Shown here piece by piece: positions 16,870 through 63,654 of a stretch of DNA of 64,000 nt. The stretch lies in the sequence record PP274704.1; one strand, 5' to 3'. The position numbers and the translations under genes were made by a program. A model generated the notes under the pieces. The model worked only from the letters and a program-made list of their open reading frames with translations, searched no databases and was not told the DNA's origin. Position 1 is the first letter of the stretch; each line of letters begins with the position of its first letter. This DNA is from Escherichia phage ECp13.

Positions 16870-16915
16870 TTTTTCACAAAACTGTTTACAAGACTGTTCC
16901 TCTGTGGTACTATTA
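16870..16915 (+). promoter_or_regulatory. Early promoter (GTTTAC, 18 nt, TACTAT); near-identical copy at 43590-43632
   Basis: aaactGTTTACaagactgttcctctgtggTACTATtac. Confidence 0.55.
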
Positions 16916-16947
16916 CTCTATCAACCAATACAAATTTGGAGAATGAA

Positions 16948-17328
16948 ATGAAAATTGCTATTTTGGTTATTGCATTGGGTCTTACTGGTTGTGTAGCTCA
17001 AGGACCAGTAGTAAATCAGTCTGATGCAGGAAAAATTGTAAACTGTTCAAGCAAATTTTATAATCCTAACGTCAAGTGTTATAAAGAAGCTCCAAAACAG
17101 ACAGTAGAACAAATGCAGGCGAATTTTGACGAAGCTATTCGTCCAGATGAATCTGCTCAAGCATATCGTAATTCAGATGTAATTACACGCGAAGAAAAAA
17201 TTGAAAACTACTGCGCCGAACTTTGGGCTAATTGGGCTAATAATTACCAATGGCGAACTGGTAAAAATGCTCCAATGGAGTATGTAGTGAATTCTTATAA
17301 TTCATGTGTAAAAAATTTGACTAAGTGA
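16948..17328 (+). CDS. Putative lipoprotein (126 aa)
   Basis: Signal peptide with lipobox LTGC; ORF track N-terminal extension 16759.. runs through the promoter and is rejected. Confidence 0.6.
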   Translation: MKIAILVIALGLTGCVAQGPVVNQSDAGKIVNCSSKFYNPNVKCYKEAPKQTVEQMQANFDEAIRPDESAQAYRNSDVITREEKIENYCAELWANWANNYQWRTGKNAPMEYVVNSYNSCVKNLTK

Positions 17329-33212: not shown

Positions 33213-33252
33213 AAAGTTGTTTACTTCCTCGGTTAGTTGTGGTATTATAACA
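33210..33252 (+). promoter_or_regulatory. Early promoter (GTTTAC plus TATTAT)
   Basis: aaaagttGTTTACttcctcggttagttgtggTATTATaac. Confidence 0.5.
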
Positions 33253-33275
33253 CCATAGCTACTGAGGATAATAAA

Positions 33276-42274: not shown

Positions 42275-42604
42275 ATGATTTATTGTATGAATATCGGTGA
42301 TTCCGACATAAAAGAGATTAAACTGCACGGAAATCATCATGCTAATATTGTGTACTGCAATAAATTTGAGTTTGGTCACGAAAAACTTGGGTTTCTTTAC
42401 TGCAATGATATTATAGTCATGGATAAAAAGGAACTCGATGAACTTGACCATGAGTCTTTAGATGAAAATGACCGAATTTATTACGGCACTCTTAAAGTAT
42501 ATAACGCTTATCTCAGCGGTAAAAAGGAAAGTCTAAATGCAGAAAACGAATCCGGGTTTACAGAGACTATTTCAGATTCCGACATTTACCCTATCGAACA
42601 GTGA
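42275..42604 (+). CDS. Hypothetical protein (109 aa); 3' end overlaps denB by 68 nt
   Basis: ORF track; AAGGAAAAA SD. Confidence 0.45.
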   Translation: MIYCMNIGDSDIKEIKLHGNHHANIVYCNKFEFGHEKLGFLYCNDIIVMDKKELDELDHESLDENDRIYYGTLKVYNAYLSGKKESLNAENESGFTETISDSDIYPIEQ

Positions 42605-43094
42605 CTTGACTAGTGAAATGAAGGTCAAAATTGCTGATACAGCAAGATACTCTTTAAAACAAAATCCAAATCAGGATAAAGCAGAAGTTATTGAAAGATG
42701 TCGTATCGCGGTGTACGCAGAATTTTTTGTAGCAGATTGGCTAAGTGGGTATGTTAACAAAGGCCAAGAAGATGTTAATGACCCGTATACATATGCATGG
42801 GATGTATTGGCGCATCCAAGATACTGCGGGCTTCGTGTAGAAGTTAAGACACATCAAACTGACTCACGTTGGATTTCTGTAACAACAGGATGCAGCGGAG
42901 AGTATCCATATGGTTCTGGAATAAATCTAGGGCCCATTCTGAATCATCAGGTCGCTGACTGTATAATTATATTCAACACTAAAGAAATTCATCCAGGTGT
43001 CATCCAGTACACTCCGAAGTTCATTGGTGATAGAGAAGACCTTCGTAAGGTTGTAAGAAAAAGCAACTACAACGGATGGTATCTTTCCATTTAA
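42537..43094 (+). CDS. denB: Endonuclease IV DenB (probable, by length and position)
   Basis: 185 aa ATG ORF with AGGAAA SD between rIIB and ndd. Confidence 0.55.
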   Translation: MQKTNPGLQRLFQIPTFTLSNSDLTSEMKVKIADTARYSLKQNPNQDKAEVIERCRIAVYAEFFVADWLSGYVNKGQEDVNDPYTYAWDVLAHPRYCGLRVEVKTHQTDSRWISVTTGCSGEYPYGSGINLGPILNHQVADCIIIFNTKEIHPGVIQYTPKFIGDREDLRKVVRKSNYNGWYLSI

Positions 43095-43145
43095 AAAATT
43101 TTCACAAAACGGTTTACATACCACAAGGACTGTGGTACTATACAA
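43095..43145 (+). promoter_or_regulatory. Early promoter cassette (GTTTAC, 18 nt, TACTAT) with conserved upstream AAAATTTTCACAAAACG
   Basis: Same cassette family at 46885-46935 and 63565-63612. Confidence 0.55.
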
Positions 43146-43175
43146 CTATCAACTGATACGGATTTGGAGAATAAA

Positions 43176-43382
43176 ATGTTTACTACAGCTGAATTAAAAC
43201 GAGCAAAAGCTAAGAAAGGGCAAGGAAAATATAAAGCTGAATTAGTTAAAGAACTTCAGTTTGCTGAGGCTGAATTGAATTCAATGATTATTCAAAATGC
43301 TCCAGAAACTGAAATTGCTCTTAAACGTATTGCGAATAAGTGTCTTCGTGATGCAATCGTCGATCTTTTAGCAGATTATTGA
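43176..43382 (+). CDS. Hypothetical protein (68 aa)
   Basis: ATG with GGAGAATAAA SD; track start 43164 is TTG. Confidence 0.5.
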   Translation: MFTTAELKRAKAKKGQGKYKAELVKELQFAEAELNSMIIQNAPETEIALKRIANKCLRDAIVDLLADY

Positions 43383-43589
43383 GTAAAATGAAAATCATTG
43401 AGATTGAACTATGAGTTCATTGTGGTGGTGTTTTGTTTGGTTAATTAGTATTCCATTAATTTGTTTAACATTTACTTTTGTAATGAGGTTATTATGAAAA
43501 TTTTGAATTCTGTGCTTATTGCTTGTGCGTGGTGGGTTGCGCAAGTTTCGGCAGTGGTGATTGGTATTCACATTTATTACGAATATTTT

Positions 43590-43632
43590 TAAAAAAGTTG
43601 TTTACAAGACTGTTCCTCTGTGGTATTATTAC
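43590..43632 (+). promoter_or_regulatory. Early promoter, near-identical copy of the 16870-16915 cassette
   Basis: aaagttGTTTACaagactgttcctctgtggTATTATtac. Confidence 0.55.
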
Positions 43633-43657
43633 CCTATCAACTACGGAGGAACAGAAA

Positions 43658-43771
43658 ATGAAAAAGATTGTTAAAGCTATATGGAATGTAGTTATAATAC
43701 TAGTAGTTTTGAGTATATTCCCAATCGTTTTAATGATTGATGTATTAAACGCTTACTTTGGATTTATGTGA
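43658..43771 (+). CDS. Hypothetical membrane peptide (37 aa)
   Basis: ATG with GGAGGAACAG SD; single predicted TM helix. Confidence 0.4.
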   Translation: MKKIVKAIWNVVIILVVLSIFPIVLMIDVLNAYFGFM

Positions 43772-43778
43772 GGAAAAT

Positions 43779-43976
43779 ATGAAGCGTAAACGCAGTGCTT
43801 TTACATTTATTGAATGGTTTTTCGATAATATTTTTCCAGCTTTATTCATTTTCATGCTGATTTTTGCCTTAGGTTCAGTTGTAGTTGGAATTTATTTGAT
43901 GGCAGTTGTCGGAATGGACATTCATCAAAATGGCTTAAAATCTGTTGTTGAAACAATTTGGAATGGTGTAAAATAA
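43779..43976 (+). CDS. Hypothetical membrane protein (65 aa)
   Basis: ATG with GAGGAAAA SD; in frame with ORF track 43758..43976. Confidence 0.45.
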   Translation: MKRKRSAFTFIEWFFDNIFPALFIFMLIFALGSVVVGIYLMAVVGMDIHQNGLKSVVETIWNGVK

Positions 43977-44091
43977 TGAATTTACTAAGCATTTGGTTTT
44001 ATATTTTCATGTTTTACGTTGGTGCAAATTTTCCGTATTGGATGGGATGGTCAACAACTGCATTTGGATTTTATACTCCCTGAGGTGAATT

Positions 44092-44307
44092 ATGAAAATT
44101 TTTAAAGATGTAAAAGTTGGTGAAATTTTTTGCTTGGATAGTGGTGATCAGTTAATTCGTATTTCACCTCTTAAGAGCACTAGCGAGAAAATGACAGTTA
44201 ATGCTACTTTAGCAAATAACAGTAATGAACGTTTCTGTATTGAAAACGATACTGAAACTTATACTGTAGAAGAGTTCTGGGAATTGAGCGTCGACTGCGA
44301 CGATTAA
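44092..44307 (+). CDS. Hypothetical protein (71 aa)
   Basis: ORF track; GAGGTGAA SD. Confidence 0.5.
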   Translation: MKIFKDVKVGEIFCLDSGDQLIRISPLKSTSEKMTVNATLANNSNERFCIENDTETYTVEEFWELSVDCDD

Positions 44308-44366
44308 TTTATCGGCCGTGTGTATTCATGCGGCCTTGGAGTAGAAAATAATTAGAGGAAATTAAT

Positions 44367-44822
44367 ATGAAATACATGACTGTTACTGATTTGAATAATG
44401 CAGGTGCTACTGTTATTGGTACAATCAAGGGCGGTGAATGGGTTTTTGGAACTCCACATAAAGACATTTTATCTACACCTGGATTTTACTTTTTAGTGAG
44501 TAAATTTGGTGGTCCATTTGATAGTCCGTGTGTATCTGCACGATTTTATGTAGGTAATCAGCGTTCTAAGCAAGGATTCAGTGCAGTTCTAAGTCATATT
44601 CGTCAGCGTCGGTCTCAGCTTGCGCGTACTATTGCAAATAATAATGTTCCATATACAGTATTTTATCTTCCTGCTTCTAAGATGAAACCTTTGACGACAG
44701 GATTTGGAAAAGGTCAGTTAGCTTTAGCGTTTACTCGTAATCATCATTCTGAGTATCAAACACTTGAAGAAATGAATCGTATGTTGGCTGATAACTTTAA
44801 ATTTGTTTTACAGGCATACTAA
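44367..44822 (+). CDS. ndd: Nucleoid disruption protein Ndd
   Basis: 151 aa; position and length as T4 ndd. Confidence 0.75.
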
Positions 44823-44995
44823 TGAAAGCTCTATTTGTAATGGGTTACCTATTAGTTTTAGCCTTATTCACAGTGACCGGAATCTTTATGGCTTTAGGTC
44901 TACCTCTTAATGATAATGCGGCTGTCGTGATGTGTGTAGGTGGCGGATTTATCTGTTTTGAACGTTTATGCAAAATGTGTGGTGTGTATGAGTAA
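44822..44995 (+). CDS. Hypothetical membrane protein (57 aa)
   Basis: ATG overlapping ndd stop; hydrophobic. Confidence 0.4.
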
Positions 44996-46884: not shown

Positions 46885-46935
46885 AAATTTTTTCACAAAA
46901 CGGTTTACAACCAAAGCATACTGTGGTATTATACA
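46885..46935 (+). promoter_or_regulatory. Early promoter cassette (GTTTAC, 18 nt, TATTAT)
   Basis: ttttttcacaaaacgGTTTACaaccaaagcatactgtggTATTAT. Confidence 0.55.
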
Positions 46936-46973
46936 ACTATCAACTACTGATACAGAATTACGGAGATTAGAAA

Positions 46974-63564: not shown

Positions 63565-63612
63565 AATTTTTTCACAAAACGGTTTACATACTATAAGAAC
63601 TGTGGTACTATA
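63565..63612 (+). promoter_or_regulatory. Early promoter cassette (GTTTAC, 18 nt, TACTAT)
   Basis: ttttttcacaaaacgGTTTACatactataagaactgtggTACTAT. Confidence 0.55.
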
Positions 63613-63654
63613 CAACTATCGGCAATACTGCTGATGATTAAAGAGGAAAATAAT

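Follow-up and report, generated by a model that had tools for sequence, protein, structure and literature searches.

The interval between denB and ndd in Escherichia phage ECp13, part of the 64,000-nucleotide stretch of record PP274704.1 that was analysed here (the window), is very probably, taken as a whole, the ndd.6-ndd.5-ndd.4-ndd.2a-ndd.2-ndd.1 cluster of Tequatrovirus, the T4-like phages. A preliminary description of this DNA had treated its small ORFs as unnamed, but all six are genes already annotated and named in T4, ndd.6 to ndd.1, such that the cluster is a re-discovery rather than a new locus, and this finding alone therefore changes little. The ndd.x genes are some of the many conserved T4 early genes that have no assigned function. 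In line with the earlier remark that they are largely uncharacterised, Kutter 2018 (PMC6071114) gives the ndd.1 to ndd.6 products as unknown, and our literature search on ndd.x, DUF7248, PF26909 and the PHROG families found no functional study.

The assignment follows from both gene order and sequence. From denB through the six ORFs to ndd, T4 order and T4 strand are kept in alignments with T4, ime09 and ESh34, and the ORFs match gene by gene the annotations of T4, ime09, SA21RB, T6 and PST. By megablast, 508 phage records match, almost all of them Tequatrovirus. Amino acid identity to the T4 products is 89-100% (tblastn: ndd.6 96%, ndd.5 97%, ndd.4 92%, ndd.2a 98%, ndd.2 89%, ndd.1 96%), and a PHROG family match was obtained for all six ORFs, with E values from 1e-17 to 1e-37. 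The ATG ORFs of 28, 32, 37, 65, 35 and 71 codons that had been listed are all present, on the + strand, at 43411-44307. The start given for the island, 43388, belongs to an 8-codon ORF outside the six, the first of which begins at 43411; furthermore, two features between denB and the island had been overlooked, a 68-aa ORF at 43176-43382 and, at 43113-43141, another early promoter. The features to which we refer are the following.

16883..16925, + strand: second copy of the 43599-43641 promoter (41/43 identity)
43099..43150, + strand: T4-type early promoter downstream of denB (regex and consensus scans)
43176..43382, + strand: 68-aa soluble ORF of the Yersinia phage PST ORF269 type, phrog_4535 (PST annotation)
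43388..43414, + strand: 8-codon ORF MKIIEIEL, its stop overlapping the ndd.6 start (ATGA)
43411..43497, + strand: ndd.6, 28 aa, one hydrophobic span (phrog_8851, E 3e-17; 25-residue uncharged run)
43494..43592, + strand: ndd.5, 32 aa, one hydrophobic span (phrog_5011)
43600..43629, + strand: internal T4-type early promoter (10/12 consensus match with TG)
43610..43654, + strand: 15-bp hairpin over the internal promoter (inverted repeat; fold)
43658..43771, + strand: ndd.4, 37 aa, one predicted transmembrane span (phrog_3098)
43779..43976, + strand: ndd.2a, full length, 65 aa (Pfam DUF7248, phrog_2401)
43976..44083, + strand: ndd.2, 35 aa, aromatic-rich, hydrophobic, zero charged residues (phrog_4135)
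44092..44307, + strand: ndd.1, 71 aa, soluble, acidic, net charge -8 (hydrophobicity/charge analysis)
44314..44335, + strand: 9-bp GC-rich hairpin between ndd.1 and ndd (dG -16 kcal/mol, z -2.3)

Judged by their coverage and variation, the six ORFs are all real coding genes on which purifying selection acts. ATG ORFs of at least 28 codons occupy 0.89 of 43388-44310 on the + strand, as compared to 0.24±0.15 (maximum 0.75) in dinucleotide shuffles of this interval, none of which (0/1000) reached the observed value. The pN/pS ratio is 0.08 for ndd.6, 0.06 for ndd.5, 0.07 for ndd.2a, 0.13 for ndd.2 and 0.09 for ndd.1, with 0.07 for ndd, and selection on the ndd.x genes thus appears as strong as on ndd itself. 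Since ndd.4 shows zero synonymous variation among 16 genomes, pN/pS is uninformative for this gene, and its coding status rests on protein conservation across genera; protein homologues are found in other genera at 35-60% identity. As had been stated, most ORFs have a ribosome binding site: clear SD motifs precede the 32-aa (GAGG), 37-aa (GGAGG), 65-aa (GAGG) and 71-aa ORFs (GAGGTGA), while at the 28- and 35-aa ORFs the SD is weak or absent and the start overlaps the preceding stop instead (ATGA and TAATG). The more general idea that the ORFs start at the previous stop is true of three overlapping junctions (8-codon ORF/28-aa, 28/32 and 65/35, the last being the TAATG shared by ndd.2a and ndd.2), but two further junctions have spacings of 7-8 nt and one is a 65-nt gap that holds a promoter.

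At the level of expression, the evidence comes from T4, where the ndd.x RNAs are all classed as early and the Ndd.1 protein was detected, likewise early, whereas the five hydrophobic peptides are listed as not detected by proteomics (PMC9697503 supplement). A missing signal is expected for such hydrophobic peptides, which is not proof that they are present. The combination of absent translation and absent conservation, named at the outset as grounds for abandoning these ORFs, is not what is found, given the strong conservation and the T4 Ndd.1 protein seen by proteomics.

The locus had further been called hypervariable. This does not hold within Tequatrovirus, where all six genes form a fixed block: of 585 phage records that match, 493 align over 80% or more of its length with an identity of at least 90%, and pN/pS lies at 0.06-0.13. 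Variation is confined to the flanks (68-, 87- and 57-aa ORFs) and to the gene content between genera. The 68-aa ORF is a variable cassette that T4 lacks and that is found in only 117 phage records; its SD, GGAGAATAAAA (43166-43176), equals the RegB cleavage consensus GGAGRAYARAA (PMC3014915). The 8-codon ORF corresponds in the alignment to the last 8 codons of an 87-aa ORF retained by ime09, T6 and PST and is therefore a deletion scar; its pN/pS of 0.83 indicates that the MKIIEIEL peptide is unconstrained, and the probable role of this ORF is that of a leader for coupling to ndd.6. Both the 68-aa and the 87-aa ORF indels lie directly downstream of promoter 43113. On the other side, the window carries a 57-aa ORF at 44822-44995 that is absent in T4. 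Between genera, ndd.4 and ndd.2a are the conserved members, which shows an experimenter where to begin. Within the interval, conservation is widest for ndd.4, which is present in 42/47 loci and found by tblastn in 595 phage records (about 100 of them below 80% identity), whereas ndd.5 is present in 16/47 loci, all in Tequatrovirus.

Five of the six products are predicted to be bitopic inner-membrane micro-proteins. In each of the five, hydrophobicity analysis shows a single uncharged stretch of 21-35 residues, which suggests one transmembrane span and leaves no room for two; of the one or two helices that had been proposed, one span per peptide in five ORFs stands, and two helices per peptide can be ruled out, since the longest uncharged runs are 21-35 residues. 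Ndd.4 has a basic N-terminus (KK..K), an invariant Asp28 and an aromatic tail in the alignment. Ndd.2a has an N-terminal KRKR, one 30-residue hydrophobic span and a conserved C-terminal tail, GLKSVVETIWNG. By the positive-inside rule, both would adopt an N-in/C-out topology, such that the GLKSVVETIWNG tail is expected to be exposed on the periplasmic side. Ndd.2a matches Pfam DUF7248 (PF23906) over residues 6-63 with 71.9 bits (E 4.4e-20), well beyond the gathering threshold of 27 bits. A single-sequence HMMER search of Ndd.2a against 1.8 billion representatives gave three credible relatives only, the long matches being hydrophobic repeats. Ndd.1 is probably cytoplasmic and is predicted to fold as an SH3-like small beta-barrel with a C-terminal helix; a structure search with it gave no functional lead, and a PDB sequence search with its profile returned nothing below E 0.5. 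Scans of the six products against Pfam, PHROG, NCBIfam and PADLOC yielded families of unknown function only. The sole PADLOC match, of Ndd.4 to KwaA (E 0.0085, 13.8 bits), covers the transmembrane segment and was rejected as hydrophobic-composition noise.

With respect to transcription, the promoter downstream of denB consists of an AT-rich upstream element, a -35 box TTTACA (43113-43118), a TGn and a -10 box TACTAT (43136-43141); its sequence recurs with 49/52 identity at 63569-63620 and with about 90% identity at 46890-46945. The internal promoter has GTTTAC at 43600-43605, a TGn and a -10 box TATTAT at 43624-43629. Both are annotated in phage SA21RB. It had been noted that the internal promoter is duplicated in the window, and indeed 43599-43641 and 16883-16925 are identical at 41/43 positions, with the copy driving a 126-aa lipoprotein-like ORF at 16948. 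This arrangement suggests two immediate-early units, the first of which would run from promoter 43113 through the 68-aa ORF, the 8-codon scar, ndd.6 and ndd.5, and the second from promoter 43600 through ndd.4, ndd.2a, ndd.2 and ndd.1 to the hairpin at 44314-44335, with the cistrons inside each unit presumably coupled through stop and start codons that overlap or lie close together. The two-unit architecture can be read from the DNA; that it functions in this way we infer. The hairpin at 44314..44335 is not followed by a U-tract, is conserved in T4, ime09 and ESh34 and is labelled a terminator in the SA21RB annotation; it is possibly an attenuator or RNA-stability element that closes the second unit.

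A second hairpin, at 43610..43654, bears on the translation of ndd.4. Its 5′ arm lies in the promoter spacer and TGn, the -10 box sits in its loop, and its 3′ arm covers the ndd.4 SD (GGAGG). The predicted stability is -23.2 kcal/mol (z -4.15), and none of 200 shuffles folded equally well. In the predicted fold of a long transcript, which as read-through RNA holds both arms, all 10 nt of the ndd.4 SD region are paired. With the -10 box in the loop, transcription would begin about 7 nt downstream, near 43636 as deduced from the promoter geometry, and would exclude the 5′ arm; RNA from this start folds with the ndd.4 SD free. Because the promoter spacer pairs with the ndd.4 SD, we propose that ndd.4 would be translated solely from RNA begun at its own early promoter and not from read-through RNA, which would limit Ndd.4 production to the opening minutes of infection. 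The copy at 16883..16925 has the same spacer, that is, the 5′ arm, without a complementary 3′ arm, and folds poorly (-5.8 kcal/mol, z +1.6). The hairpin can be ruled out as an intrinsic terminator of the first unit, as no U-tract follows it. A promoter-nested hairpin of the same design is also seen at a motB-type promoter within the window.

Similar hairpins, built from other arm sequences (z -4 to -5.3), precede the ndd.4 homologues of other genera, and the proposed gating hairpin would have been rebuilt with different arms in at least four other lineages, whereas two lineages have no significant hairpin at this place (z -1.9 and -0.8). These comparisons rest on folds and z-scores for each lineage; a column-by-column count of covariation was dropped, because in a promoter-anchored alignment the arms of different genera do not occupy homologous positions. 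We thus put forward, tentatively and in the knowledge that the case falls somewhat short of even, that ndd.4, usually together with ndd.2a, constitutes a cross-genus membrane micro-protein module whose translation is gated by a promoter-nested hairpin. If this is true, and not previously described, it would be a general T4 device that limits immediate-early translation to RNA from a gene's own promoter and shields such genes from read-through RNA, perhaps also from RegB cleavage, and it would imply that the dose or timing of ndd.4 is important. The promoter-nested hairpin is a candidate regulatory device that would be cheap to test.

As for what the peptides do, we consider it most likely, as an inference, that they serve as accessory factors specific to certain hosts or conditions and act on the inner membrane and envelope of the host soon after infection, within its first minutes. 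Their accessory nature, suspected before, is borne out by three observations: the T4 deletion saΔ9, which removes the ndd.x region, is viable (PMC6071114); CRISPRi-ART knock-down scored all six genes as 'Not Fit', i.e., without a fitness effect individually (PMC11879866 supplement); and Shigella phage ESH35 has a natural deletion from ndd.2a through stp. The T4 counterparts are early-transcribed, and laboratory E. coli supports the phage without any one of them. A single phenotype has been mapped here, a failure of T4 to stimulate phosphatidylglycerol and phospholipid synthesis: with saΔ9, phospholipid synthesis is no longer stimulated by T4, and with rIIΔDD2, which partly overlaps saΔ9, it is the stimulation specific to phosphatidylglycerol that is lost (PMC6071114). 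The mapping was by multi-gene deletions in multiply mutant strains only, and the genes responsible could be 52.1, ac, ndd or denB, or the effect an indirect one. That at least one of the ndd.x peptides causes it is possible, if on the doubtful side, and part of the likelihood falls to roles other than this one and the exclusion and shut-off roles considered below. Since the ndd.x genes make up most of the functionally unassigned genes within the phosphatidylglycerol-stimulation deletion, this old question becomes testable by single-gene deletions.

Among the alternatives to a general envelope function, we consider it unlikely that the peptides are superinfection-exclusion or counter-defence factors, which would block the DNA entry of a secondary phage or neutralise membrane-associated defences. 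Early expression, membrane location, dispensability in the laboratory and mosaicism between genera fit the general profile of such genes, the conserved tail of Ndd.2a is predicted to face the periplasm, and the adjoining stp is, by its annotation, a known interactor with host defence. However, Pfam, PHROG and PADLOC show no similarity to Imm, Sp or any defence-related profile, no such phenotype is reported in the literature, and a block that is fixed in about 490 Tequatrovirus genomes does not resemble anti-defence genes, which are usually patchy within a genus. Another possibility, and quite an improbable one, is that they are host shut-off peptides in the manner of TisB or Hok that depolarise or permeabilise the inner membrane early, their dose being limited by brief early transcription, the hairpin at the ribosome binding site and RegB cleavage. 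Their size, hydrophobicity and single-span design would suit this, as would the predicted tight gating of ndd.4 translation, the RegB consensus site in the leader of the first unit and the note in Kutter 2018 (PMC6071114) that many of the small immediate-early genes of T4 kill the host once they are cloned; yet T4 development itself needs an energised membrane, and there is no sequence relation to known toxins.

It is highly improbable that the block is merely cargo of mobile promoter cassettes, shuffled in modular fashion as in PeSL elements and retained because it travels with strong promoters, not for anything it does itself. Near-identical promoter copies do occur elsewhere in the genome, whole-ORF indels fall exactly at SD/ATG junctions adjoining promoters, and the locus is an example in Comeau 2014 (PMC4122927), but purifying selection on the peptides and their fixation in the genus argue for function, the stem-loop that defines PeSL upstream of the promoter is absent here, and part of the published 'exchange' at the locus is an annotation difference. 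The notion that these short ORFs arose by chance in a promoter-rich spacer that codes for nothing and in which only regulatory cassettes matter is almost certainly wrong and is already contradicted: every ORF is tiny, automatic annotations differ in which ones they call and peptide evidence exists for only one of six products, but variation is biased to third codon positions (pN/pS 0.06-0.13), ORF coverage exceeds that of all 1000 shuffles, protein homologues occur in genera whose DNA no longer aligns, and SD motifs and coupled stop and start codons are in place.

The closest known system is T4 itself, whose counterparts (NC_000866, T4p275-T4p269) belong to the same PHROG families (ids also in the PMC11879866 supplement). 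In the window, ndd.2a is intact at 65 aa, whereas in the T4 RefSeq sequence the omission of 1 nt at codon 2 splits it into ndd.3 and a 40-aa ndd.2a; an independent T4 assembly carries the intact ORF. The annotated ndd.4 of T4 differs as well, as it begins 5 codons upstream, at an ATG made by a C>T change. These errors (ndd.3, truncated ndd.2a, long ndd.4) continue to be carried over into new phage genomes, as does the erroneous label 'naphthalene 1,2-dioxygenase'.

The PeSL cassettes (Arbiol 2010, PMC2839356; Comeau 2014, PMC4122927) resemble the locus in their AT-rich element, TTTACW-N17-TAYWAT promoter, SD and ATG, a promoter consensus found here at 43113-43141 and 43601-43629, and likewise in their repeated genomic copies and in the whole-ORF indels beside the cassettes. 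In the published cassettes, a stem-loop directly upstream of the promoter serves as terminator (PMC2839356, PMC4122927), whereas upstream of both promoters here we found no terminator-like site or inverted repeat. Instead, the strong hairpin here surrounds the -10 box, its stem being formed by the spacer and the SD further downstream.

Imm and Sp are small early T4 membrane proteins that are non-essential on laboratory hosts, and the type I toxins TisB, Hok, Ibs and Ldr are hydrophobic peptides with one span and 20-50 residues, the translation of which is controlled by structure in the mRNA around the SD. The toxins share single-span peptides and, by prediction, SD gating with the ndd.x locus, but no sequence relation. 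The likeness to Imm, Sp, Ac and the 'monkey wrench' genes of Kutter (PMC6071114) is that all are early, small, membrane-associated, non-essential and located in deletable regions; the ndd.x products differ from Imm and Sp in that they have no detectable sequence or profile relation to them.

The nearest precedent for the gating of ndd.4 is found in the T4 genes e, soc, 49 and I-TevI, in which the SD is locked in a helix of the read-through RNA and a promoter inside the structure gives rise to a shorter, translatable RNA without the 5′ arm (reviewed in PMC3014915). There, the internal promoter is a late one and the device delays expression, whereas the internal promoter of ndd.4 is of the early type (-35/TGn/-10). 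Since it is nested downstream of a further promoter of the early class, it would turn the same device to a different use, restricting expression to the earliest period of infection.

The small-ORF block at 43388-44310 of the window, which derives from a Tequatrovirus, is already known as the ndd.1-ndd.6 cluster of T4. By megablast, a 1.3-kb query around the island hit 508 phage records, and in 310 of these the match spanned at least 80% of the query. Alignment to the annotated genomes of T4, ime09, SA21RB, T6 and PST identified the ORFs as ndd.6, ndd.5, ndd.4, ndd.2a, ndd.2 and ndd.1, and the six products are 89-98% identical to the T4 proteins. All six match PHROG families, each of unknown function; furthermore, Ndd.2a matches Pfam DUF7248, and Ndd.1 has a precomputed Pfam assignment (PF26909). 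Since the ORFs match T4 genes and known families, the island is both named and catalogued.

Features of the denB-ndd interval, with pN/pS (16 Tequatrovirus sequences) and presence among 47 denB-ndd loci from T4-like phages
42537-43094: denB, upstream neighbour of the cluster
43411-43497, + strand: ndd.6, ATG ORF of 28 aa; pN/pS 0.08; 24/47 loci, patchy between genera
43494-43592, + strand: ndd.5, ATG ORF of 32 aa; pN/pS 0.06; 16/47 loci, Tequatrovirus only
43658-43771, + strand: ndd.4, ATG ORF of 37 aa
43779-43976, + strand: ndd.2a, ATG ORF of 65 aa; pN/pS 0.07; 28/47 loci, patchy between genera
43976-44083, + strand: ndd.2, ATG ORF of 35 aa; pN/pS 0.13; 24/47 loci, patchy between genera
44092-44307, + strand: ndd.1, ATG ORF of 71 aa; pN/pS 0.09; 24/47 loci, patchy between genera
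44367-44822: ndd, downstream neighbour, followed by stp and ac; pN/pS 0.07 (comparison)

The preliminary description had reported six ATG ORFs, and all are present on the + strand at the sizes it gave. ORF coverage of 43388-44310 is 89%, as compared to 24±15% (maximum 75%) in 1000 dinucleotide-preserving shuffles, none of which reached the observed value. The island's start at 43388, however, belongs to an 8-codon ORF outside the six, and a 68-aa ORF (43176-43382) and a second early promoter (43113-43141) had been overlooked. Shine-Dalgarno (SD) sequences precede the 32-, 37-, 65- and 71-codon ORFs (GAGG, GGAGG, GAGG and GAGGTGA), but those of the 28- and 35-codon ORFs, whose starts overlap the previous stop (ATGA and TAATG), are weak. 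The ndd.1 SD and AUG (44082-44096) are 87% complementary to 44156-44170, which lies within the gene itself (codons 22-27); folding 44072-44178 gives -23.9 kcal/mol but a z-score of only -2.3, and the complementarity may reflect translational masking or chance.

Two annotations of the cluster need correction. T4 'ndd.3' (26 aa) and 'ndd.2a' (40 aa) represent a single 65-aa ORF (window 43779-43976) divided by a one-base gap: at codon 2, a G is absent from the T4 RefSeq sequence (NC_000866; ATGAA-CGT versus ATGAAGCGT). Because the ORF is intact in an independent T4 assembly (OZ035787.1) and in about 490 other Tequatrovirus genomes, 'ndd.3' is probably a reference-sequence artefact. Furthermore, many GenBank/RefSeq records label Ndd.1 (71 aa), and some Ndd.4 (37 aa), as 'naphthalene 1,2-dioxygenase', a name that such short products rule out; the misnomer is spreading via annotation pipelines.

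One or two transmembrane helices had been predicted for most products. Five of the six do carry a single uncharged stretch of 21-35 residues, but none has room for two spans, and the 71-aa Ndd.1 is soluble with a net charge of -8. Common to Ndd.4 homologues are a basic N-terminus, a single span ending in an invariant Asp, and an aromatic tail. Those of Ndd.2a also begin with basic residues, followed by one long span and the conserved C-terminal sequence I-Q-x-x-G-L-K-S-V-V-E-x-I-W-N-G. The positive-inside rule would orient both proteins N-in/C-out, which would place the Ndd.2a tail in the periplasm. The presence of ndd.4 in 27 of the 28 loci with ndd.2a, usually immediately upstream of it, suggests that the two proteins form a module.

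The identity of the genes and their coding status are established here; third codon positions hold most of the variable sites among the 16 Tequatrovirus sequences. For ndd.4, pN/pS is uninformative, because it has just five variable sites, none of them at a third position (its neighbours have 8-22); its coding status is supported instead by the wide conservation of its product. Across ndd.4 and the 5' half of ndd.2a, nucleotide diversity forms a valley (43655-43865; pi 0.01-0.02 versus 0.04-0.10 around it), for which possible causes are a recent sweep, recombinational homogenisation and an extra RNA-level constraint.

Early expression and dispensability are established by data from T4. All ndd.1-ndd.6 RNAs were classed as early, and proteomics detected Ndd.1 early, but not the hydrophobic ndd.x products (PMC9697503 supplement). 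T4 carrying saΔ9, a deletion from 52.1 through denB, is viable and produces phage at approximately half the wild-type rate (PMC6071114), and CRISPRi-ART scored every ndd.x gene as 'Not Fit' (PMC11879866 supplement). In Shigella phage ESH35 (ON528745.1, a record marked UNVERIFIED), a natural deletion fuses ndd.4 directly to ac, such that ndd.2a, ndd.2, ndd.1, ndd and stp are missing. These observations bear out the accessory character proposed for the island.

The flagged block itself is not 'hypervariable', a term that suits the island edges and the comparison between genera: of 585 matching records, 493 span at least 80% of 43388-44310, with identities of 90% or above in nearly all, and 493 records carry an intact 65-aa Ndd.2a. 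The six-gene core thus is fixed within Tequatrovirus, whereas its flanks vary and the denB-ndd interval is a mosaic between genera. The most widely conserved product is that of ndd.4, found by iterated HMM search in 42 of the 47 loci across many T4-like genera, and by tblastn in 595 phage records; roughly 100 of these, Enterobacter and Edwardsiella phages included, fall under 80% identity.

At the upstream edge, the 68-aa soluble ORF (phrog_4535, PST ORF269 type) occurs in just 117 phage records and not in T4; its insertion lies exactly between the SD/ATG nearest the promoter and the one that follows. The SD of this ORF, GGAGAATAAAA, which leads the transcription unit from promoter 43113 through ndd.5, perfectly matches the RegB cleavage consensus GGAGRAYARAA (PMC3014915); a leader site of this kind fits a quick functional shut-down of the early transcripts. 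Several phages, ime09, T6 and PST among them, carry an 87-aa ORF (PST ORF268/RB69ORF270c type) that neither the window nor T4 has. The 8-codon ORF at 43388-43414 (MKIIEIEL) corresponds exactly to its last eight codons, overlaps the ndd.6 start via ATGA and has a pN/pS of 0.83, that is, no peptide constraint. It looks like a deletion scar that would retain translational coupling to ndd.6. At the other edge, a 57-aa hydrophobic ORF (44822-44995, phrog_5941) overlaps the ndd stop with its start and the stp start (44988) with its end; it is absent from T4 and present in 26 of 47 T4-like loci, often in genera without stp.

The island is accessory and uncharacterised, as first described, but neither new nor hypervariable within the genus. 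Kutter 2018 (PMC6071114) gives the ndd.1-ndd.6 products as unknown, and no function is assigned to them in this analysis or in the searchable literature. Mapping has tied just one phenotype to the region, and it concerns lipids: T4 stimulates phospholipid synthesis, a response that is lost in saΔ9, and rIIΔDD2, a deletion sharing part of the same stretch, loses the increase specific to phosphatidylglycerol; a protein made in the first five minutes is required for the effect (PMC6071114). Since ac, stp, ndd and denB, the deleted genes with known roles, act in ways unrelated to this effect, 52.1 and the ndd.x peptides are the remaining candidates, and on this basis we regard it as possible, but less likely than not, that one or more of the membrane peptides cause it. 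Superinfection exclusion or counter-defence by these peptides appears unlikely. Host shut-off by membrane perturbation is more doubtful still. Searches of families, defence systems and solved structures gave no function lead. Recordable by-products are the probable reference-sequence origin of 'ndd.3', the apparent scar leader ORF at 43388, the cross-genus pairing of ndd.4 and ndd.2a, and an SD hairpin nested in the ndd.4 promoter.

The internal early promoter that had been noted upstream of ndd.4 is supported by its consensus (GTTTAC at 43600-43605, TGn, TATTAT at 43624-43629), and its duplication by 41 of 43 identical positions between 43599-43641 and 16883-16925. The ORF under the duplicate (16948-17328, 126 aa) carries a lipoprotein-type signal, MKIAILVIALGLTGC, so both copies head genes for envelope-targeted products. 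The two island promoters conform to the extended T4 early consensus, and each has at least one almost identical copy at another site of the window. Between 43099-43150 and 63569-63620, 49 of 52 positions agree, and 46890-46945, which lies upstream of a MotA-like ORF (46974), matches 43099-43150 at approximately 90%. These three copies (90-94%) share the spacer and a downstream ACAACTATC motif.

A predicted 15-bp hairpin overlaps the ndd.4 promoter (43610-43654; dG -23.2 kcal/mol, z -4.15, a stability reached by 0 of 200 shuffles): the promoter spacer and TGn form its 5' arm, the loop contains the -10 box, and the 3' arm contains the ndd.4 SD. RNA from promoter 43600, for which 43636 is the approximate putative start, would lack the 5' arm, and its predicted fold leaves the SD free; in read-through RNA from promoter 43113, the SD would be paired. 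Within Tequatrovirus, pairing survives most arm substitutions through G·U or C-G changes, as it does for each of the three by which T4 differs and for a further one in PST; only a G>C, carried by two variants (loci L043/L005 and L008), drops the outermost pair and leaves a predicted 13-bp stem. Among the loci considered in other genera (L009-L015, L019, L021, L022, L034, L038), the same design recurs upstream of ndd.4 homologues with different arms, CATCTCCGGTGG/CTACTGGAGATG, CATCTCCATTAG/CTAATGGAGATG and CTCCGTTAG/CTAACGGAG (z -5.3, -5.2 and -4.05); in two lineages the hairpin is not significant (z -1.9 and -0.8). At 16885, the duplicated promoter has the 5' arm too, but lacks both a 3' arm and structure (z +1.6). 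The spacer-to-SD design was seen at just one other of 15 early-promoter-like sites in the window, 33226-33268 (dG -23.7 kcal/mol, z -5.5), upstream of a 169-aa ORF (start 33276) annotated as MotB/modifier of transcription in relatives. At a third early-type promoter (34328), a hairpin around the -10 box falls short of the SD.

Promoter repeats of the same kind as both island promoters have been termed PeSL (promoter-early stem-loop) cassettes and linked to ORF shuffling (Arbiol 2010, PMC2839356; Comeau 2014, PMC4122927), and Fig. 6A of Comeau 2014 takes this very locus as its example. The 'exchange of ndd.4/.5 for ORF268/269' shown there is partly an annotation difference, because Yersinia phage PST (KF208315.1) carries ndd.6 and ndd.5 intact but unannotated at 658-901, and has ORF269 and ORF268 in addition to them, not in their place. 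The defining PeSL stem-loop lies upstream of the promoter (Comeau 2014, Fig. 3 legend, PMC4122927), where we looked for one at both island promoters and found none; the hairpin at 43610-43654 instead encloses the -10 box. The nearest known parallel, found at T4 e, soc, 49 and I-TevI (PMC3014915), uses a late promoter in the hairpin; at ndd.4 the promoter is early, so that the hairpin would confine ndd.4 translation to the immediate-early period.
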